From Patellaria atrata CBS 101060 (lineage: Eukaryota): 64,000 nt of DNA. The stretch is from NCBI GenBank assembly GCA_010093705.1, contig MU006094.1, forward strand, positions 843,550-907,549, given 5' to 3'. The notes beneath the pieces were generated by a model that saw only the letters and a list, made by a program, of their open reading frames with translations, was not told where the DNA came from and made no database searches. The translations under genes and the position numbers were made by a program. The first letter of the stretch is position 1; each line of letters begins with the position of its first letter. Below, piece after piece: positions 7,601 to 25,229 of this stretch.

Positions 7601-8595
7601 TTCAAGTGTCTTACATCATTTTCGTCCCTGTAAGTGGAATGTGTTTTAACTAAGGCGGGGAATGAGCGTAGCTGTGTACGGTAGGGAATACAGTGATACA
7701 GGCCCTCCCTTCTTGTTGACAAACTTTATGACAAGAGGACGTCTCCCGTTATAGTACACTGATATACAACCTCTTCAAGTCTTCATGCAGACTGTATTGA
7801 AGTACTGGGATCGTTGTGGAGTGCCCAAGGGGTTGGTGTCAGATTTACCGATACGACTGAGATTGGGATGTACAAATACGTATTGTGAGTACGTATTTCA
7901 GTATGCAGATGAGGCACACATAAGTCTCGTTGAAAACTGGACGAAAAGGTGATGTCTAAGAAGCTAAGAATAGTGTAGTCTATTCCTTTGTCCTGGTCCA
8001 AAGGTATTGTGGGAGATGTATTCTCTCGCAGTGGTTCTGGTGATAGTCCTTGAACTATGTAGCTCGCTATTATTCGAAAAACAGCGCGGTTTCATTTTGA
8101 AAGATATCATATTCTTTCGAAGTTACTTCAAGGTACTGTAAATACTTGCGTACCTTACCTTTACGCGCGTCCTTTACAAAGGTTCGTTATCGTTGGGGCG
8201 CGGGTGTGGCGTTACGATAGGCACAGCCCCAGATCTTCCCGTCCACGAAAACCCGGGGGTGCAAGGTGTTTCAAGTTTGGACGTTCAGACATCTATCCTC
8301 ATATTCTCCTGATTCCCGGCGATACTCTCCATGTTTCCCTTCTGCGAGGGTCTATTTCGTCGTAATTCTCTCCGACCCAAATATCGTGTTCTATCCCTTC
8401 GTCCTGATTGATTTATACTCGTTCCATTGCACTCAAGATCATAACATCAACCTCGTGAACCCTTAGGGGTAACGCATACTCCTGGAAGAGACGGCATTTC
8501 CCTCTGAAAAAGTTGACTGGAACAACTCTAGACGAGAAAAAGACAGTATCTCGTCAGTAAAAATATCCTGGGAAGATTAGGGAATTGAGTCGACA

Positions 8596-9699
8596 ATGGC
8601 TACAACCTTCTGGCAACGGGATCTCGCATCCTCATTTGACGACGCTCGCGACACCTTATCATCGTGGGACAAATGCATGGACAAGAACTATTGCAAGTCA
8701 GTCTTCCTTACCGTGATGCAAACATTCTCTTTCAACACCCAACCCATTCCTAACGTTTAACACAGATGGCCCGTCATAGTCGGAATTATTATTGGTTCAC
8801 TCATTCTAATATCAGTCCTCATCTGCATCATCCGCTGTGCCTGCTGCGGCGCTGCGTGCTGCTGTAGTTGCATGTCCTGCTGCACATCCTGCTGTCCATC
8901 TGGGGGTCGCAAACACAAAAACCATGAATCGCTCCCCTCTCCCGCCCCGATGCCCTACGACGGGCCCATTGATACACAATACGCTAGTCGTGCCGGCATG
9001 CCGATGTATGGCGCCGGGTTCCCTAGTTCCGTTTCCACCTACGGCTCCAGCGCCCCGCAATACGCACAATTCGACGCCTCGACGAATAAGGGCGGCAAAT
9101 TCAACGAGGATGCGCTACCTGCGATGCCGAGCTGGGATACCGCGACGCAGAGAAAGGTCCAGGTTGAAATAGAGGAGGAGGAACCCCCTAGGAATCAAGA
9201 GGTCGGCATCGCGATGAAGCCTCTCGACCGTGACGGTAGTTTGCACGCGGACTACGGCAACACTCATAGCGCAACGAGTCCGATGCTACCTAACGCAGCA
9301 GGTGCTCCTCTTCGCTCTCCAGTCTCACCATACGCGCAAACTCGCTCCCAATCGAATGACATGTATACCCCACAATCGCGCACATCCCCTGACGATCGCT
9401 CCACCGACCCATATTTCCGACAACCGCAGCAAAACTCGTACAACACCTACGACTCGCCTTACCAAATCAATCAGGAGTCCGGCGTACTTACGAGCACTGG
9501 AGGGCAGAGGACGCAATCTCCACCTCGGGACGATTATCGTTATGCTTCACCGGCGCCGTATACGGACAACTACAGACATAACCAGCGGGGATTTCAGGAA
9601 AGTGCCTATGACAACTATCCGCCTAGCGGTTATGACGCATATCAGCCCCCGCAGCAGGTTAACAGGAGGCCCGTCGATGGGTCTTGGAGGGATATTTGA
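8596..9699 (+). CDS. Pin2-like ('fibroin-3 related') single-pass membrane protein; 2 exons (8596-8696, 8766-9699)
   Basis: SSWDKCMDKNYCK|WPVIVGIIIG, then a TM helix, a Cys-rich juxtamembrane stretch (CACCGAACCCSCMSCCTSCC), the motif NEDALPAMPSW, and a Y/P/Q-rich tail ending GSWRDI. Intron GTCAGT...CTAAC...CAG. Confidence 0.8.
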
Positions 9700-10794
9700 A
9701 GATCTCAAATTCAACAAATTTTTAGTGAACCACGTAATCTCTAGTTGTATCACAAAAACGTTCTGGGATATGGTAGCACAGCAGTCGCGGGAGGCAAGCT
9801 GAGAAATGTTCACAAGATTTTCGGTGGTGTTTCTTCACAGCCCTATTTTGGGTACAGGTTGTGGCTATGGTTTTGATTATTTCGGGTATGCATAGCGACG
9901 GCGTACAGGATTGTATATGAAGGCTCGATATCTCCTTCCTTTGGGCCGGGTACAGGGATTTATGTCTAGAATAAGGTCAATGGTATTCGACAGTGCAGGC
10001 ATTTCAGGCCGAATTCAAACTGACGAACCCCTAAACCCCCGTTACGCCATTGGATCTCTATCTTCATACGTAAAGTTCCCCGATCTCCACATTGTCGAGT
10101 CTTTGAATCTTACTCTACCTGCCTGGGAAGCCTCAAGACGTACCAGCTCCGCCCCAATCCGACCATAATAGCACAAATAAGCTTAGGATGTCGGAAAGCG
10201 GCGGGATAGTCGACCAGCGCCTTTCCGTGTACTAGGTATCAGGATGTTGAACAAGCAAACACCGCGTCACGGCGTACAGCAGACGAGATACTAGGGACCG
10301 CTGACCTGGTCCTAAGAGTAGGCTTACCACAGCTCTACAAGAGCGCAAAGTAGTGTATATGTTTGCTATTGATTGGGGTAAGCGCTGAACTGAACTGAGG
10401 TGAGAAATAGGGAATGGAGAGTTCGAGCTGGAAGATTGCGTGACGTGTGATGGCGAGGCGATGCGATGTGGTATAAATATCAGCTTGGTTGACTGGATGA
10501 GAGTTACGTCCAGTTAAATGCTAGAAGAGTAGAGAAGCCGTAGCTGAAACCAATAGCGCCGTTACCCGTATGACCAGCCATGCACCCTATGCTTCATCGT
10601 CTTTGAATCATCTGTCCCACATCCGAACAAAAAATTTATTAGTACAATGACACCTCGTTCACCGTTTCCCACGTGACAGCCGGGGATATCTGCAGTGCTT
10701 CCTTTTCACCACATTTGTGCCCCTAATCTTGAAGCAGCACTCATTGCTCCTGTCCACTCGGTCGCACATTCATTTACTCGGGCCCGTGATAATT

Positions 10795-15212: not shown

Positions 15213-17476
15213 TCAATATCCGAATTCCTCTACCCTCAACCATACCCCTTGCGCTCCCGTGCCTTTATGCACAGCTCTCTCGTCGCTCAAGCCGACCGTT
15301 GCGGTCCTAACATCGCTTACTAAACCCCTCGGGCCGCACACGACCACGGCACTCTCGCCCAGCGCTTGCTCGAGAGACTTGCGGATGATGTTTCGCGGCT
15401 GCGGTCGGCCGGAAAGGAGGGTGATGTGCGGGTGAACGAGAGGTTTGGCAAGCGAGATGGTGGAGGAGTTGGAGGAGACGGTTCTGGTAGTTGGAGCAGG
15501 GTTAGTAGGCGAAGTGGGTTTGGAGTCCGAGACGCCGGCAGGGATCACGGCGGGTTCAGAAGAGGATGCGCCGCAGTTGCAGTCACACACGACTTGAGCG
15601 TCAGAGGCGGCTTCGTCTTCGATGGTGTTGGTGCAGCAGCATGTACCGTCGGGTCCGCAAGCACCACCGTTGTTCGGAACGACGGAATCGGTATTCGAGC
15701 GAGCGTCAACTTGACGGATGGAGATTGCGTCGTCGGACTTCCCCTTTAACAACCCCTTTTCGTCAACCTCGGTTATTTCTTCTGGTTTACCGTGGACCGG
15801 AAGCTGTTGGGTAGGATTGGGTGACGAGAGCGGCGATTTGTGCTCTTCGGTGAAGCTAGGGTCACAGGTGACATAGACGCTGATATCAACCTCAACATTC
15901 GCACCGGCGTTCCGGAGGGTGTTGACGTCTTCGATCACGGTGGAGAGTTGCGAACTGAACCAGCCAAGCTGGCCGCGGGATTTGATGACCCAGACGAAAC
16001 GGATATGGCGGGTGACTGCCACATCTGGAATACTTAAAAACCCACCATTTTTCGAATCCGATCCAGGAGTGAGCCATGCTCGGACGATATCCCTGAGCAA
16101 TGGCATAGTGTATGTTGCACCAGTGCTTCCGGCGAAGAAGACGATACTGTCAAATTGCCTCAACGGTCTTATCCGTCCGTAAGGGCCTTCAATGCCTACA
16201 CTTTTCCGTTGGCATATCTGCACTTGATCTGTGATTGGGAGGTCACCTTGTTTCTTGGCGTGGCGGAAGAATCTCATAGTTCCTCCTTTTTCTGCTTTTA
16301 CAAGGAACTCCATCTTCCCATCTGCGGGTATAGAAGCAATGGTAAAAGGATGACTCTGGAGTGGAATGAGAGAATGACACGATAGGAAGACATATTGACC
16401 GGCCTTCCAACTGATAGGGGGATCGTGGATCGTGATCCGAGTGGTATTGTGAGGCAAAGGCTCAAACTCGGCTTTGAGGGACCAGAAACCGGACAATTGG
16501 CCAAGTTTACGCTGCTTGGGATGGAATATTGAGAGGTTGATGTATAAGATGTATAGTGCTCTGACTACACGGTCGAAGAAAAATAAGCCCACGGGAATCC
16601 ATACCCAGTGTTGGACTTCATCGGGAACGTGAATGAACACGAATCCAATGAATACCGCAAAGGAAACCAGATGCTGGAGAACGAAGAGTTCATAGTTCCA
16701 GCCTCGAATCGGGGTCATGGAACTTAGAACTATCCATACCAAAACTGCCCATGACATAACGCCTTTCCTGGTGATAGGATCCGTTCGTATCTTCTTCTCG
16801 ATGAAACCATCGTATGGGGCCCAGTTAGCAAACCAGTAGCCCATATGGATCGTTGCGGTTAAAAACAAACCGCGAGCGGTCCATCGATGGAGCCAGTTTA
16901 GTCTCTCATGACTGGTTCCAGTTAAGCAGCCAACGATATTGTTCTTACCCGCGAGAAGAAAGATGAGGGGTAATTGTGCGATGGAGACGAAGCCGCTCCT
17001 GTAGCCAATATCTTCGTAGGACCAGATATCGTTTGTGTCAAGTTTGTAGAAGCATAGGACAACGAGGATGATGATATATGCAAATACTAGACTTACTCGA
17101 CCAACCGTAGGTGCGTACAAGGTATGACCGCGGATGGAGATGGGAGCAAACGAGGCATGACGGGTTTCCCGTAATATGGCAGTTATCGTAGCTCCTATTG
17201 TAAAGAGGAGAAACTTGGGTTTGGCTGGTGTCGGCTGATTGAACTTTTGGGCAGACAGTCTGGATGGGACCTATTTAGTCATGCTGTCCTCAGTGAAGAA
17301 GGAGCGACCAACCTTTGTCTATGGAGGAACTTGTTGTACAAGTTCACAGCTGTGGCGGCTGCGATGAAAGTTCCAACAACGATCCAATAACCTTCTTGGA
17401 TGCGAAAGTTTGTAGGTACACCGTCACCCATGGACATAGAGCCCATGCTCATACCAGAAGTATGATCATGCGACAT
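15213..17476 (-). CDS. Ferric/cupric reductase (FRE family, Fre7-like metalloreductase); 2 exons (17476-17313, 17259-15213)
   Basis: His/Met-rich N-terminus (MSHDHTSGMSMGSMSMG), heme-ligating TM His (WLHRW, TIHMG, LQHL, FIHV), FAD motif HPFTIAS, NADPH motifs EGPYG and AGSTGATY, and C-terminal VVVCGP..EEFGY. Confidence 0.93.
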
Positions 17477-17769
17477 CTTGGGGCTTCGGCTCTCAACTTT
17501 GAGAGACACGGAAAGGGAGTCGAAGACAGAACAAGAAAGAGAAAGGGTGGTTTTGACAGGTTAAGAAAAGGCAGTTCCCAGTAGATTGCGACTTCCACCC
17601 AGGGAATATGCAAAGAAGACATGCGCCAGACAGAAATGAGGTTCCAGAAGAGGCAAGCCTATGTCATGGATAAGACTAGGGTTATCGATATGGAAATAAT
17701 GGAAGAATGAGGAGATGAGTTTTGGGATTTAGGAGAGCATAAGAGGATGCGACACCCATCATGGTGTAG

Positions 17770-17799
17770 GTATGAGCTTTTCATGCTCGTTTCTGCTCA
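17770..17799. promoter_or_regulatory. Cluster of three CuRE-like (Mac1/Cuf1-type) GCTC(A/G) cores in the FRE/CTR divergent promoter; a fourth TGCTCA lies at about 17991
   Basis: GTATGAGC 17770-17777, TGCTCG 17784-17789 and TGCTCA 17794-17799 resemble the known CuRE core TGCTC(A/G). They lie between two copper-uptake genes. Confidence 0.55.
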
Positions 17800-18565
17800 C
17801 ATCCCACTTTTGCGGTCAGTCCTACCGATACTCTATACAGATACTGTACCATGTTCTCACTTTCTGACTTTCTTACGGCACAAGGCCACACTAGGGTAGG
17901 ACGCACAGGGAATATTCGGCACACGGTCGATCAAAGGGTCGATTTGAGGCTAGCCCCACCAAAGAAGCTTTGTATTCTCCAATCAAAACCTGCTCAAACA
18001 CCCTCAGGGCTGTCAAATCGCCTCCACGCCAACTTTCTTTGTTAACTACCTCAACCTGAAAATATCATTATTCCAACAAAATGGTACAAACGAGCCTCTT
18101 TAGGGCAGTAGACGACTCCGTACTGTAAGCCGAGGACTATCACTAAAGTAGAGTATATACTCACCACACTTTCTTTTCTTGCCTTGTTGTATGCTTCTAC
18201 CCGTAATACCTTACCTCTTTTTTCCCCCATAGACTGTCACAGACCTGCTACTTCCTGTCCCGACTGCATTTCAAACATCCCACCTTGGCTTTGTCGCAGC
18301 TTTGGTGTTACCCCACGAACATACGTTAATGACTGTACAAAAGCCCAAGATCATTCCTTTCATGCTTTACAGCGCGAAAGCTTGAAAAAGCACAGCGCGC
18401 GTTTGAGCGGGTTCTACGCTCTGATACATATTACTTTACTTCCATCCAGTCATCCATCTATTCTTCAGACCCTACCTTGCCATCTTGACTCCCCTTCGAC
18501 TGAAGAGAACTACGTCTTTACGCAGAACCACGAATATCTAAGTTAATCTCATCTCAACCTTCAAG

Positions 18566-19192
18566 ATGGAGGCAAGGCACCCACATGGGGATATGGATCA
18601 CTCCAGTATGGGCACATCATCTCACATGAACATGGTTTTCTTCTCCGACACCAAATCACCCCTATTCTCCTCAATGTGGACTCCCACGTCCGTCGGTCAA
18701 TACGCCGGAACATGTATCTTCCTCATCGTCCTCGCCATCGCCTTCCGCTCCATATTTGCCGTGAAGCATCGTCTAGAAGCAAAATGGCTAGACGAGGCAA
18801 TCAACAGAAGATACGTCGTCGTAGCAGACAAGACTCCCGTCGCAGAACAAGTAATTAGAGATACCGATTCCAAAACCGCCGTGTTGTCTGCCAACGGAGT
18901 CGAGGAGCAAGTGAGAGTCGTTCACCGCCCAGTTCCTGCTATTCAACCCTGGAGATTCAGCGTTGATCTCCCAAGATCGTTAATTGTCACCGTAATGGTT
19001 GGCGTCGGATATCTGCTGTAAGCAGAACTCATCCCTACTCAGGATCTTCATGACAGTCGCTAATTCTATGTAAACAGTATGTTAGCAGTCATGACAATGA
19101 ACGTTGGTTATTTTCTCTCAGTCCTAGCTGGCACTTTCATCGGAGAGCTAGCTTTCGGACGATACATTCAGCTTCACACCGACCATCATTGA
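18566..19192 (+). CDS. Ctr-family copper transporter; 2 exons (18566-19017, about 19078-19192)
   Basis: Met/His-rich N-terminus with MNMVF, WTPTSVGQYAGTCIFLIVLA, PWRFSVDLPR, the TM2 MxxxM motif (YLLMLAVMTMNVGYFLSVLAG), and a C-terminus ending HTDHH. Confidence 0.94.
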
Positions 19193-19805
19193 TTTTCGCA
19201 TTTCTGCTTTCAAGACATCGTTCGGCGTTGGTGGATCATTTCGGTATCGTTGCAAGCACGTCTTGCCGGTTTCACGTGTACATGGTATAAGTGCTGTGGA
19301 AGCACCGATGCCATCGTGTACAGCGGGCGGTTTTATCTTCACCGCCAATATTTTTAAACCAAAACATGTGAAAGAACGGTGAGAACACAGCTGGTGTTCC
19401 ATTTCATCTCAAAATGCAAATTCTGATCATATTCAAAATATCCGCATGCCATTTTTGAAGGTCTCACAGTGTATAGTGCATGTCATACGTTACAAGTATA
19501 TTTCTACAATCTGAACGGAACCAAGTCCGCCTTTTCAGCAATCAAATCAGCATCAGCAGCAATCAGCATTAGCTATTTGTACAACCGTCCAACATGACGA
19601 AGTATCCCGTACCACATCCCACAACTGCATGCTGTACCACAATTATTCCGTCACTGAACTTCACCGATAAAAAAATCTCCCAAAATCGAAAAACCCCAAA
19701 GCACTGTTAAACAAACATCCACATCCCAACAATAAGATAGGCTGTCACGTCACTAGACACAACACATCACTAGGTACAGTAAATAAAGACCCTCCCCCTC
19801 GCAAA

Positions 19806-19806
<1 letters not shown>

Positions 19807-19851
<45 letters not shown>

Positions 19852-19889
19852 TTCCCCCCCCTTCCCCCAGTCCCCCGTCCCCCGTCCCA
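19807..19889. repeat. Poly-C homopolymer (about 45 C) with adjacent C-runs; G-quadruplex-prone on the minus strand
   Basis: Read directly from the sequence. Confidence 0.9.
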
Positions 19890-20549
19890 CGTCAACAACC
19901 CCATATATTGTCCGATCCTATAACAGCATGCCCCACCAGCGAGCCCTCGGTGGGGCTTTCCTGCTTATTGTCTGTCCTACCTGTTGAAGTTGGAATTGGT
20001 CCTACTGCTAAGGTATTGCCAAGCGCTAGAGCACCGATGGGGTATTTGCGTTTGCGTTCGTCTGTATATGACTAATTGGGCTTTTGACATGTGTGTGTGG
20101 GCACTGTCATTCAGGTGCTTGTCGTTTTTCGAGGTATGGACTATGATCTGGTGGATGCAGGGTACGGTGCAATAGGAGAAGACTTGGAGGTTTTGAAAGT
20201 GATCTCCTGTCCAATAGTTCTACTTGGTAGCGGCCTCGTAAGGTATTCGGGGTGAAGCTTTTCCATAAGCGATGAATTCTACATATACCGCTCTGGAACT
20301 GCACCGATCAATTTCATAGTCTTAAAAACAAAAAAAGGACCAATAACTTAAACCGAGAGAAAAACTCGTTGTGAAGTGATCATACCTTACACCAATCCCT
20401 CAAAGCCCCACAACGTTGGTTTCCCCCACCCGAAAGTTCCTTAGGCCCACCCAGCCAACCAATCACCTCCAAGAAAGATGAAATTCCGTATTTGCATTGA
20501 ATACATTCTATTTATGGACAATTAAGGGATCAACAATTCCCATCCCGTT

Positions 20550-20622
20550 GCCCGGCTAGCTCAATCGGAAGAGCGTGGGACTTTTAATCCCAAGGTCGAG
20601 AGTTCGAGCCTCTCGTCGGGCG
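20550..20622 (+). tRNA. tRNA-Lys (anticodon UUU), intronless
   Basis: Acceptor stem GCCCGGC/GTCGGGC, D-arm TAGCTCAATCGGAAGAGC, anticodon arm TGGGA-CTTTTAA-TCCCA, T-arm GAGAG-TTCGAGC-CTCTC, and a downstream T-run (Pol III terminator). Confidence 0.96.
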
Positions 20623-20988
20623 TGCTTTTTTCTTTGGAGTTTTTTCCCCTACATGGGAGATATTTACTGTCGATACTGGATGCTTCTTTTTATTTATTTT
20701 TTGAGAAGGGGATTATTTTGTGATTTCACGAGATCGGGGGGCATAAGGACACTATACGATATGTGGGCAAGATACAGGTATCACAGAAGCAATGCAGAAG
20801 TATTTGAGTATATTGGATTCAGATATCATATCCGCCCCGTTCGCAAATCATATTATATATATTTTCCCGCTTCTAGAAGCTCGCTCCCCGTCGTAACCTT
20901 ACACAATCCTCTCGCCGGAGGTATCTCCTTCAAGTTACCTTGGCAGACCCGCCTCCTCCATAAGCTCAACATTAACGTAGTAACGCAT

Positions 20989-21741
20989 TTACAACGCGGC
21001 AAGTCCTCCGACGACGCCCAGCGCGCCGACAACATAGCCTACGAACGGCGTCATTTGAGCTGCTAGGCCTGTGGATGTGGATGTCGAAGCGCTGGCTTCG
21101 GATTCGGTCGCGCTGGCTGAGGGGTGGGAGTGCGAGTGACCGTCCGAGGAGGATTCGTTGGCGTTCATGCCCCCTTCGAGGGGTTGGACTTGGATGCCGG
21201 AGCTGTTGGTGCAGTGGTCGTTGTAGTCTGTTGTGCTGAGGGGGGTGGATGTGAAGGTTATGTCGGCGCACTAGCAGGGAATCGGTAAGAAAGTTTCGGG
21301 TTTCAGCGATGAGATAGGGAAAGGGAAAGTTACCTGATACAAGCCACCGCTCGGATCGCCGTTCGAGAGAACCTGAATCGTTGCGTTCATGCCTTCGGTC
21401 AGGTTCAGCTCGTCGGGGAAGGTCACCATGCCGAAGCAGAAGTTCTCGGGACCGCGCTCTTGAATCGTCGGCACGAGCACGTGGTTGTAGGCGTCGCCGG
21501 GGTCGTTGCCGAGGGCGAGTACGACTTGCAGTTTGGTTTCCGTGTGGCCGAGATCGAGCTGGATGGGGCCGCCGCTGAGGGGGAAGGGCGTGCGTTCATC
21601 GGAGACGTCGTTGAAGCCGCCGCAGGGGAAATCGCCTGCGGTGCGGTCTTCGAAACCACGAGCTTCGGGCCATTCGAGCTGGAAATGAGCGGAGGTGAGG
21701 AGGGGAAAGAGAGAGAGAGCTAGGGTGGATGTGGAAAGCAT
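20989..21741 (-). CDS. GPI-anchored copper-binding protein, BIM1/Cbi1-like (X325, LPMO-like fold); 2 exons (21741-21334, 21270-20989)
   Basis: Signal peptide ending TSA leaves His1 (HFQLEWPEARGF..PCGG). Later motifs are GHTE, FCF and NATIQV..GGLYQ|CADITF, then an S/T-rich stalk with HSHSH and a hydrophobic GPI-type C-terminus (GYVVGALGVVGGLAAL). Confidence 0.85.
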
Positions 21742-22263
21742 GTTAATGGTTGTTTGGAGAATGGGGAGATTATTTGTGAACTATTTGATCTTTCTGGAGC
21801 TATCTGGAATTGAAAAGGAGCTCAGATGAGAAATGGAAGAGACGAAGGAGGATGTGTCAATGTATACGAAATTAGTCAATCGCGGAGTCCACCTGACAAT
21901 GCAATGATAATGATCTAATGACTAAATTCCAGTGACACACAACTCAGGATAGAAGGCAAATGGAAGTTTTGGAAGAACTCGAAAGCTCCAAGACTCTGGG
22001 GTAACAGCTCTTTTAAAGCTGCAACGTGAACCGGTACCTCGCATTCCTGTCCTCCCTAAGGTAAGATTCCATTTCCGCCACCACGGTGCCTGTCAAAGAC
22101 ATGTACAGTACAGTACAGTAGGTACATTTCCAACCATTCACCACGCATCCATCAGCAACGCGATTATCTCAAAAGAGCCTTTTCAAGCATTCAAGCTTCG
22201 CTGCCGCGGATGACGGGATGTTCCAACTTGTTGGTAAGTAACGGCAGAGTTGATAGAGCGGAA

Positions 22264-22283
22264 ATATGAGCGAGTATGAGCAA
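22264..22283. promoter_or_regulatory. Tandem CuRE-like motifs (TATGAGC x2) about 530 bp upstream of the BIM1-like gene
   Basis: ATATGAGC-GA-GTATGAGCAA; the reverse complement contains TTGCTCA. The same 8-mer GTATGAGC occurs at 17770. Confidence 0.5.
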
Positions 22284-24245
22284 GTTTCTCATCCTAGCGC
22301 GGGGGAAAACGAAGAGATGATGGGCGCGAGTCAATGCCGGACATGGCATCGCTTGAGCCTCATGGCAGACAGGCTATATCGGGCTTACATCGGGGCGATC
22401 CAACGTTAACCCAGTATTTTCTTCGCGGCTCTCTTTGAGCTTCCATACAAATATACCTGTGCCCGGACTCACAGCACACCCCTATACAGGATGGTACCTT
22501 TACGTGACAAAGTCTCCGCAGATTTTAACGCTACAGATTTGATAGCGCGCAATTGTTAAAAGAAAGTACAGAGTACTAGAACTACTTGAACTAAGAAATC
22601 GCAGTGCAACAGTATCTAATTTGTATATCTCCAATCCACCGTTGATCTTACCACCGCAATGGACTTGGACATATGGGATGATGCTTCGGAAACCGTATAG
22701 GAAACTCTATCATCTACACTTCGAAGCTGTTTGTACGGTTGCGGATCCTTCGTCCGGTTTTCGACTTTCCTGTACGATCACGCCAGACAGCTATACAAGC
22801 CCGAGCGTACGGTAAAGCGAGCATTGCGCCGAAAGAGAAGAGAACAAACCATTCCTGGGAAGATACTTCCGTCGACATCGTTGAATCCCTTTGGATATAA
22901 TTCATCACGTTGCGGCCTTGATGGGTTAGAGAAGTTGAACGTTACGGCAGGCAGTCATATCATGTTTCGTCTCCTATAGATACGTCGGCATGATCGCCAT
23001 TAAAATGCGGATCCAACAGCGACGGCACCAGTTCTCATACACTGCCTTTCTACGCTCCCAATCGAGAATCTCAGTGCCAATGCCTGTTTTCCACGCGATG
23101 TCTGGATGTGCAAGCACGGCGTCTCGACTATCTGGACTGCTAATGCGATACTTATCTTTGAGACCTGGATCGGCCTAACCCTGCTCTCTGAGAAGAGTAA
23201 GGAAACCCTAAAATTCCGCAACGGGTTGCAAAAGGTGCACCTGTAACATTCTCATATGGCAGGCCGTCGTATGCTGGCCTTACAGAACAAAGTTCAGTAC
23301 ATCCAGGCGCTGGTAGACGAATGCGGTTAAGCTGATTACTTGAGTTATCGGATTCTGTGAGCTTTGGTACTTTCCCTCATTCTGGGCCATTCAGCATTAA
23401 CGTGGCAACCTGGAAGTTGTCTCATCAAGATCTAGCCCAATTTTATCTCTAGATCTCTTTCCTTTCTTCCGCTCGTTTTTCTTCATCTCATTCCCCATCT
23501 CTTTTCATCTCCGAACCGCAGGCCTATCTCGTTGTTGATTGTCTGTGCGAGGGTCACTAAAAATGGAGCGAAGAAATTCCTCATCTGTGTTTCATTGAAT
23601 TTATTGTTCATCTCGAATTGTTCTTCATATTCATCTCACTCTACGAATCCCTTTTGTTCTTAATCTTCATTTGGGTCAAAATATACGTCAAGAATGGTCG
23701 AGATAGGAAAGGGGGTGTGACTTCACACAAATTCCATTGATTCAACTTTTGTGCGAAGGCGGAAGACTTGCGCCATTTCGAACGGTTTCGGGGCTTTCGT
23801 ACACAAGTGCGTTTCGTCATACTTCGAGTCGGAGGCCAAGTGGTCGGATTCCCTACTTTGATGCTTGATATATGTAAAATACGTGAGGTTCAAACGCGAA
23901 TCACTACGAGAATATTGCTCGTATCGAAACTTATAATTCACAGCTGAGTTTGTATGAAGAAGGTAGTATCCCATCACATCTGTTTACCACATCCTCAGGT
24001 TCTGCTCCTCTATTTGCCGGAGGCATCTTCCTACTTCTTACACTAGGAATAAATGCGCCGCTAGATCTGAAGCGCCTTAGGAATTAGCATTCGTGATTCA
24101 TTGCAATTAGGACACAATTGGTTAGTTGATATTCCTAAATTGTTTCCCTGTCCATACGTTTCATTCGAGGGCTGTATTATACTACACAATATCGTAATTT
24201 CGCATTAAACACTGCTATAGTTCCGGGAGAGAATTCCCAAACGGC

Positions 24246-25229
24246 TCAGATAAAGTTAAGCTGGACCATCTGCCAAAAGTCCCGAACGAATGCTCCGCCC
24301 TCTTCTAACAATAGAGAGAATTCGGTGGATGCTCCAATCGTGTCAATCTCGCATACTATATACTCTCGAACTAGTGCGCGTAATTCATCGACTGTATTTT
24401 CGTAATCCGGCGTATTTTCATTGGAGTAAGCGTACCTCGCGAGTTCAACAATATCACTAACCTGTTCTCTGTGAAGCTTGAAATTGGCTAGTGTTTCGTG
24501 AAGCTTTAAGAGGCATAGTGACTTGAGGGGTTCAACCCCGTACTTATCTGCGAAGGTATAGAGACGAGAAAGAGATAAGAAGACGTTCGTGTAACTATGG
24601 TAAGGCTCATTGTTGACCATTACGTGGCAGGCATAGGCCGATCTTGTGGCCGGCGGGAACTCTGAATAATAGTTCTTTTTCTTGAACGATCTTCTTAACC
24701 TTTCCTTCTTTGTCATATTCTTATAACTAAAACCCTTCCTAGTTTTCCCCTCCCGTGTTGACAGACTAAATCCATCAAAATCAGCTTCTACTGGTACTGG
24801 AACGGGCTCTTCCACTGGTACCCATCCTTGTGGTTGTACTGGCAATTCTTCTACTACTTCCACCAATGGTTCTTCGAGAGGCGGTTCATCCTCTTCTAGC
24901 GGTGACGGCTCCGGCTCCTCTACGACGGTAATGGGCAAAGGGGGAGTGAAGTCACCCATATATGCAAACTGGCAAAACCGCACAAAGTCATGCTCATCTA
25001 TATCCTCTAGATGTGCTGATCTGCTTTGCGCCTCCAGCATTCTACCGTTTATAAGAGAATTGAGTGCATCTGACTGTCTTGCAATCGCGGCAGAATGGGC
25101 GACTATGGGTGTTTTACTGCTCCCGATGAAGAATGTAAATTGCTCGGAGCAAATGATACTGCTAGGGATTTAGCATTTTGATACACATGACTGAACGTAG
25201 TAAACTTACTCCTTGTAGACGTAGGACAT
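24246..25229 (-). CDS. BTB/POZ domain protein; 2 exons (25229-25210, about 25161-24246)
   Basis: FTFFIG..PIVAHSAAIARQSDALNSLINGRMLEAQ..LEDIDEHDFVRFCQFAYMGDF and a C-terminal LYTFADKYGVEPLKSLCLLKLH, typical of fungal BTB proteins. Tandem TAGCAG acceptor. Confidence 0.88.

Follow-up and report, generated by a model that had tools for sequence, protein, structure and literature searches.

Can the genes for the capture, the reduction and the import of copper stand side by side in a fungal genome, and what would such a neighbourhood mean? The question is raised by a stretch of 64,000 nucleotides from the dothideomycete Patellaria atrata CBS 101060 (assembly GCA_010093705.1, contig MU006094.1, positions 843,550 to 907,549), hereafter called the window. 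It carries genes for a FRE-family metalloreductase (FRE), a Ctr copper channel and an X325 protein related to Bim1 of Cryptococcus (BIM1-like), which an original prediction, made from the sequence alone, had grouped in one copper-acquisition cluster. Our analysis confirms that this three-gene cluster is real, conserved and coherent. It is a three-gene extension of the known FRE-Ctr pairs regulated by Mac1. The physical link that had been drawn between capture, reduction and import holds at the level of the genes only.

The three genes and their products

The protein that sets this locus apart from a FRE-Ctr pair had been predicted to carry an X325/BIM1 domain and to be a secreted, glycosylphosphatidylinositol (GPI)-type protein with a histidine at its mature N-terminus, and the analysis bears out the domain and the histidine. 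Its first exon alone matches PF20238 with 96.8 bits (curated cut-off 27, E = 2.1e-27), and among the sequences of solved structures its sole match is LaX325 (PDB 6IBH, E = 8e-16). Read from the sequence and the alignment, His19 comes after a hydrophobic leader of 18 residues ending in Ala, and the protein has a Ser/Thr-rich stalk and a hydrophobic, GPI-type C-end (211-229). Ala18-His19-Phe20, which aligns with His1 of LaX325, is invariant in 50/50 aligned homologues, as is His66, whereas position 129 is Asp in 42 of them, His in five, Glu in two and a gap in one; in the phmmer alignment the loop Asp of LaX325 falls at most two residues from Asp129. The AlphaFold2 model of the protein (50-row alignment) has a mean pLDDT of 75.5, with a core at 85-98 and a disordered tail, and Foldseek brings it to LaX325 at E = 2e-11, with 34% identity and a TM score of 0.76 by target length. 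The copper site of LaX325 and Bim1 consists of a His brace plus an Asp on a Gly-rich loop (PMC7529816), a pattern that His19, His66 and Asp129 fit as candidate ligands.

The next-best Foldseek matches after LaX325 are lytic polysaccharide monooxygenases (LPMOs) of families AA11, AA9 and AA10 (E about 1e-4, 12-16% identity), and this raises a different possibility, namely that X325 acts as an LPMO-like enzyme which draws its electrons from the FRE, much as LPMOs draw theirs from cellobiose dehydrogenase, and that the presence of the Ctr is incidental. Yet the Pfam scan of the protein found no AA9, AA10 or AA11 domain, and the candidate fourth ligand, Asp129, is present on the matching loop, where the Asp of the Gly-rich loop occupies a site left open in LPMOs (PMC7529816). 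Bim1 of Cryptococcus neoformans shows neither redox activity nor cleavage of cellulose (PMC7529816), and in every linked locus described below the direct neighbour of the BIM1-like gene is the Ctr, never the FRE. We therefore hold an enzymatic role of this kind to be very improbable.

The reductase matches PF01794 (E = 1.5e-29), PF08022 and PF08030, and its motifs are intact: His179/193/251/265 for the haems, and HPFT, GPYG and FAGSTGAT for FAD and NADPH. Its N-terminal tail (residues 1-29) is rich in Met and His and resembles a Ctr ectodomain; in the window and in 13/13 related loci with the trio, the first 23-34 residues contain 3-10 Met and 0-2 His. An extra hydrophobic helix ahead of the six-helix core suggests that this tail probably faces outward; a plain hydropathy scan flagged only three helices. 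His-rich stretches are also found near the N-termini of the FREs on C3 and C4 (C-numbers designate contigs of the P. atrata genome with the window, G000). We infer a cupric substrate for the window FRE from the promoter shared with the Ctr, the TGCTCA sites described below and the Met/His-rich tail.

Members of the Ctr family have a Met about 20-25 residues ahead of their first transmembrane segment (TM1) and a MxxxM-x12-GxxxG motif. The window Ctr, which matches PF04145 at E = 4.9e-24, has Met23 before TM1 (48-66) and the second motif at 152-173. Judged by its sequence, it is of the CtrA2 type, being 56% identical to a Ctr that stands beside a BIM1-like gene in Aspergillus section Flavi (P0202) versus 27-40% to its own paralogues. 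A scan of viral contigs with the Ctr gave no match.

The layout of the locus (Table 1) agrees with what had been proposed, with a divergent FRE-Ctr promoter of about 1.1 kb and, as the next protein-coding gene, the BIM1-like gene, from which the Ctr is separated by a tRNA alone, confirmed as tRNA-Lys. The BIM1-like and Ctr genes converge, their tails 1,796 bp apart, and the former has a promoter to itself. Two annotated proteins, P0001 (229 aa) and P0053 (188 aa), are 100% identical to the queried BIM1-like and Ctr exons and have the lengths of the spliced models; their accession numbers are consecutive, and there is therefore no annotated protein between the two genes. The longest ATG-initiated open reading frame in the gap has 112 codons and overlaps the tRNA. 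Each of the three genes has one short GT-AG intron, for which two forms are workable in the FRE: one of 53 nt (17260-17312, 736 aa) and an alternative of 38 nt (741 aa).

Table 1. Coordinates of the copper gene cluster within the P. atrata window
Feature	Position	Strand	Description
FRE-family metalloreductase	15213..17476	-	736 aa; exon 1 17476-17313, exon 2 17259-15213; predicted intron limits
Divergent promoter common to FRE and Ctr	17477..18565		1,089 bp ATG-to-ATG, head to head; two TGCTCA sites
Mac1-type core site TGCTCA	17794..17799	+	based on the Fusarium oxysporum Mac1 chromatin immunoprecipitation (ChIP) consensus (PMC11563359)
Extended Mac1-type site AAACCTGCTCA	17986..17996	+	motif scan; in FRE-Ctr spacer
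Ctr copper channel, CtrA2 type by sequence	18566..19192	+	188 aa; intron 19019-19078; PF04145
tRNA-Lys(TTT)	20549..20623	+	sole tRNA detected in the window; bystander
X325/BIM1-like protein	20989..21741	-	229 aa; intron 21271-21333; PF20238; match to LaX325 (PDB 6IBH)
Residues of the X325/BIM1-like protein			leader 1-18, candidate ligands His19, His66 and Asp129, Cys40/102/137/156, Ser/Thr stalk, GPI-type C-end
Extended Mac1-type site AAACTTGCTCA	22277..22287	-	about 540 bp upstream of the BIM1-like ATG

The tRNA was considered as a part of the module and rejected, being absent from 20/20 related loci scanned. A poly-C run of about 45 bases, followed by short interruptions, lies between the Ctr and the tRNA (window ~19806-19852). 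The cluster is flanked by a histidine acid phosphatase (PF00328, 12779-14027, + strand), for which the Aureobasidium-like locus L018 contains a match, and by a BTB-domain protein (24246-25169, - strand).

The P. atrata genome contains four Ctr loci, about 16 FRE loci and five BIM1-like loci, two of which are apparently duplicate copies; no Ctr or FRE match lies within 100 kb of the other BIM1-like loci. The apparent duplicates are identical paralogues with an extended Mac1-type site (C11:548489-549445 and C72:938-1894), likely the result of duplicate assembly or of a recent duplication. Locus L081 has two different BIM1-like paralogues head to head, about 1.5 kb apart (7607-10591). The third candidate ligand residue is His instead of Asp in Pleosporales and other lineages (alignment position 129; L042, L046, L062), a switch that would yield a three-His site. 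This residue does not track linkage, being Asp in the unlinked L037 and His in the linked L062.

Conservation of the linkage

Metagenome contigs were scanned once with the BIM1-like alignment, through a single peptide pattern, which gave 76 loci, and neighbours were sought by tblastn (E 1e-4) with the window FRE, the window Ctr and an Aspergillus Ctr. Close relatives, defined by at least 94 bits to P0001, make up 50 loci or 29 groups at 90% identity. A Ctr lies next door in 16 of the 20 informative groups, nine further groups being too short to tell; the sampling is biased, no sordariomycete is named among the matches, and very distant Ctr or FRE genes could escape. The whole trio is present in 12 groups, 11 with the Ctr between a divergent FRE and a BIM1-like gene in tandem, and one convergent like the window. 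Two more (L031, L058) show the Ctr and the 5' end of the FRE at the contig edge, which makes 14 groups with all three genes in view, and in the other two the contig ends after the Ctr (L025-27, tandem; L035, convergent). Among the 26 loci of distant paralogues, none has a Ctr or FRE match (five groups have at least 4.7 kb on both sides).

Through their named members, trio loci can be assigned to Aureobasidium, Penicillium, Exophiala and Cadophora (for the latter three, 3/10 look-ups gave an organism). The synteny of the three genes in relatives, on which the original prediction had been made to depend, extends to at least three ascomycete classes, the Dothideo-, Eurotio- and Leotiomycetes. BIM1-like and Ctr proteins also have consecutive accessions in Aspergillus novoparasiticus, A. 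pseudonomiae, A. caelatus and A. pseudocaelatus. In Aspergillus section Flavi, BIM1-like proteins and Ctr proteins fall together in one cluster at 90% identity (15 of its 23 members listed), perhaps through a fused gene model. A BIM1-like-Ctr fusion was not found among proteins of 402-2000 aa, where the only fusion seen was with PF07247, although this is a weak negative. A quick tree, built on few columns, sets the window's group apart from two paralogue groups; no order of events was taken from it.

This gene order could simply have been inherited, the BIM1-like gene keeping its position without selection. Further neighbours are indeed common within the Dothideomycetes, as with the window acid phosphatase and the flank of L018, and the linkage has been lost in four groups. 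Nevertheless, common flanking genes are confined for the most part to loci of one class, where their positions vary, and loci of different classes have hardly more than the trio in common, apart from one match of 41% (L022-L065) and matches of kinase paralogues. Moreover, the trio is united by predicted copper functions and by a common promoter site. The linkage of the trio is not due to chance, and its unselected inheritance seems highly implausible.

Mac1-type sites in the promoters

In F. oxysporum, ChIP-seq of Mac1 gave the consensus TGCTCA (PMC11563359). With start codons set by eye and 300 shuffles, it is the top 6-mer in the FRE-Ctr spacers (27 copies, 14/14 spacers; shuffle mean 8.5, reached in 0/300) and the second-ranked one in the linked BIM1-like promoters (22 copies, 14/17; shuffle mean 9.4, 1/300), statistics that overstate independence because the sets include close kin (L016/L017, L019/L020). 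The BIM1-like promoters of five relatives without a Ctr in view (four unlinked, and the short-contig L030) all contain the word, although their six copies, reached in 34/300 shuffles, are not clearly above chance. Many TGCTCA sites read in an extended form, AAACNTGCTCA. The window carries exactly two extended sites, one in the FRE-Ctr promoter and one in the BIM1-like promoter, evidence that is partly circular since the motif was read in part from these very sites. The extended motif is not enriched over the whole P. atrata genome (84 sites versus 82 for the reversed control), but it lies at most 2 kb upstream of 5/23 other Ctr, FRE, BIM1 or copper-fist genes (C3 Ctr, C3 FRE, C4 FRE, C11 BIM1-like and C35 copper-fist) versus 0.135 expected under the uniform-genome null on which this test rests. 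The C9 Ctr has an extended site with one mismatch upstream. The yeast copper response element (CuRE), TTTGC(T/G)C(A/G), and TGTGCTCA, the binding sequence of MacA in Aspergillus fumigatus (PMC6514546), are both absent from the window promoters.

Several other sites were seen in the course of these scans. At C3:1653418-1658600 (L092) another Ctr and another FRE diverge from each other, each preceded by extended sites; they belong to other subfamilies, only about 25-40% identical to those of the window, and no BIM1-like match is found there. Of the two copper-fist genes in the genome, the one on C35 has several TGCTCA upstream (C35:60595-60920, L147), which suggests that it is regulated by Mac1 or by itself. 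Four TGCTCA, three of them exact extended sites, fall within 200 bp at C3:1698663-1698860 (L145 5664-5862) with no clear gene beside them, and possibly mark a small copper-regulated gene that has escaped recognition. At C6:760679-760727 (L146), two extended sites are separated by 38 bp and lie near what appear by eye to be genes for a glycoside hydrolase and a secreted protein. Further words enriched in the BIM1-like and FRE-Ctr promoters are CTTGGC/GCCAAG, which we take to be a PacC site, and ACAGTA.

A probable copper-uptake module and its counterparts

Several scenarios may explain such a cluster. They all start from what is observed of the linked genes: the identity and intactness of the parts, the conserved linkage and the conserved Mac1-type sites. 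We consider it fairly probable that the trio is a Mac1-induced copper-uptake module whose products act in series on the metal: Cu(II) is bound by the X325 protein, reduced by the FRE and taken into the cell as Cu(I) through the CtrA2-type channel. Low copper would bring Mac1 to the TGCTCA sites of both promoters and, as the motifs and the relatives suggest, induce all three genes in P. atrata. The putatively GPI-anchored X325 protein, in which the fold and the residues are present, would then hold Cu(II) near the membrane through His19, His66 and Asp129, without redox cycling, if it binds copper as LaX325 and Bim1 do. The FRE, whose motifs are in place, would reduce Cu(II) with electrons taken from NADPH and carried by FAD and two haems, and its Met/His-rich tail, probably outward-facing, may hold the Cu(I) produced, for a CtrA2-type trimer to import as others of its family would. 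In this presumed order of steps, copper could pass between proteins by direct contact or by local release. A narrower version seems rather unlikely to us, in which the three proteins form a relay at the membrane surface and X325 has in this FRE subfamily a release factor of its own; the route that it implies is equally tentative: the Cu(II) of the His brace would be reduced at the FRE, and the FRE tail would catch the Cu(I) and hand it to the Met motifs of CtrA2. When the X325 domain and a Ctr trimer were modelled together as a complex, without alignments, the score was 0.00, and it was counted on neither side.

The same three gene types have been seen together before. The original prediction knew of no described cluster that includes a BIM1-like gene, but the adjacency was printed in 2008 (PMC2481287), without being read as a copper capture-reduction-import unit. 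In A. fumigatus, Afu6g02800 (a GPI protein), Afu6g02810 (ctrA2) and Afu6g02820 (a metalloreductase) are adjacent, co-induced and were deleted as a block in that study, which did not recognise a copper protein in the GPI protein and, in the parts available, examined oxidants, neutrophils and iron but not copper. Over 183 aa, Afu6g02800 (P0174) shares 45% of its residues with the BIM1-like protein of the window, and the representative of its cluster, P0046, has PF20238; the A. fumigatus Ctr and FRE are likened to those of the window by description, not by their own sequences. AfCtrA2 is a MacA target and a high-affinity importer (PMC6514546). In most relatives the BIM1-like gene is in tandem, whereas in the window it is convergent, 1.8 kb off and with the tRNA between. 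The induction of the A. fumigatus trio with neutrophil reactive oxygen species and the menadione sensitivity of the deletion (PMC2481287) could point to a locus for iron uptake or general oxidative stress. Nevertheless, the same deletion grows normally in H2O2 and on iron-limited medium (data not shown in PMC2481287), sensitivity to menadione would be expected if Cu/Zn superoxide dismutase loses copper, and the conserved site is that of Mac1, which leaves an iron or stress locus the least credible of all the readings.

Other known systems share some of the parts. Divergent reductase/channel pairs on one promoter with Mac1 sites, like that of the window, are freC-ctrA of Aspergillus nidulans, present in 110/127 species (PMC7705104), and fre9-ctr3 and fre12-ctr1b of F. 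oxysporum, in which ctr3 rescues the loss of mac1 only in company of fre9 (PMC11563359). The available parts of the two papers associate no X325 gene with these pairs. The A. nidulans pair is a different one, because AnCtrA is Ctr3/CtrC-like and has no significant match to AfCtrA2. In F. oxysporum, fre10 also shares a Mac1-bound promoter with the uncharacterised FOXG_02393 (PMC11563359). Cbi1/Bim1 of Cryptococcus and LaX325 of Laetisaria arvalis (PDB 6IBH/6IBI) have in common with the window protein the family, the fold, the N-terminal His, the second His, the Asp on a Gly-containing loop and, both as predictions for the window protein, the GPI-type end and the control by low copper. The link of Cbi1/Bim1 to Ctr1 is functional, and the available text of PMC7529816 and PMC9258870 mentions neither a gene cluster nor a dedicated reductase. 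In the ascomycete Pseudogymnoascus destructans, the BIM1-like genes BLP2 and BLP3 are induced by the chelator bathocuproine disulfonate (BCS) alongside CTRs and FREs (PMC12113139, PMC13208438), and the authors draw a CTR/BLP/reductase model with the same parts as the window trio. By its locus tag BLP2 (VC83_03095) adjoins a BCS-induced FRE (VC83_03096), with no Ctr beside it, which goes unremarked in the available text (PMC12113139). A description of a FRE-CtrA2-X325 cluster as such was not found in the literature searched, in which subscription papers are thinly covered.

A number of observations weigh against an uptake module, beginning with the kinship among the promoters and the uniform-genome null already given. 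The four remaining informative groups keep the BIM1-like gene without the FRE-Ctr pair: L037, L042/43/49 and L044/46/47 have no Ctr or FRE match in at least 5.9 kb scanned on each side, and L022 has none in 10 kb upstream (1 kb downstream available). The flanking genes of L037 and L022 match trio loci and the TGCTCA site is still there; the BIM1-like gene can therefore be left behind. The unlinked paralogue on C11 carries an extended site too. In C. neoformans, Cbi1 has cell-wall effects independent of Ctr1, and cbi1 mutants, unlike those of ctr1, have phenotypes in the wall, in melanin and in copper resistance (PMC9258870). Copper excess in A. fumigatus lowers ctrA2 4.85-fold, but under the same excess the list of genes with higher levels in the wild type than in the aceA mutant includes Afu6g02820 (PMC8425704), and the regulation of the FRE may therefore differ; Afu6g02800 was not found in one supplementary file of that paper. 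The listed ctrA2 orthologue of F. oxysporum, ctr1a, is unclustered (PMC11563359), and P. destructans does not have a trio, the locus tags of BLP2 and BLP3 being far from both CTRs (PMC12113139).

The persistence of the gene in 4/20 informative groups, the site on the unlinked paralogue and the cbi1 phenotypes also speak for co-regulation without a relay, in which Mac1 control would be common but X325 would buffer wall copper or supply wall cuproenzymes instead of serving this FRE and Ctr specifically, all the more as the BIM1-like gene has a site of its own. Yet that site makes linkage needless, and linkage was held in 16/20 groups while the flanks reshuffled, and in two orientations (13 tandem-type and two convergent groups, plus the convergent window, with both genes placed). 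Cbi1 and Ctr1 of C. neoformans also interact physically and genetically (as cited in PMC9258870). We give co-regulation alone a minor but appreciable chance, and the module acting in series remains our preferred reading.

Each of the parts, the FRE-Ctr pairs and the A. fumigatus adjacency (2008) were already known; the X325 identity of the third gene, the count of linkages including the negative cases, the common promoter site and the Met/His-rich tail of the reductase are new here. The virulence of fungi on plants depends partly on copper uptake (PMC11563359). In P. destructans, a gene that takes its label from Afu6g02800, as a best hit only, is up 21-fold on bats (PMC5810475). The transfer of copper from Bim1/X325 to Ctr channels has been called unclear in work on Cryptococcus (PMC9258870), and a 2019 review draws the reductase serving A. 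fumigatus CtrA2/CtrC as "an unknown ferric reductase" (PMC6514546). The conserved cluster names candidates for both, and offers a simple genetic test in model ascomycetes, for which a triple deletion has existed since 2008. If true, the relay would explain how a redox-silent protein that binds Cu(II) feeds a channel for Cu(I), and would name the cupric reductase of A. fumigatus CtrA2.

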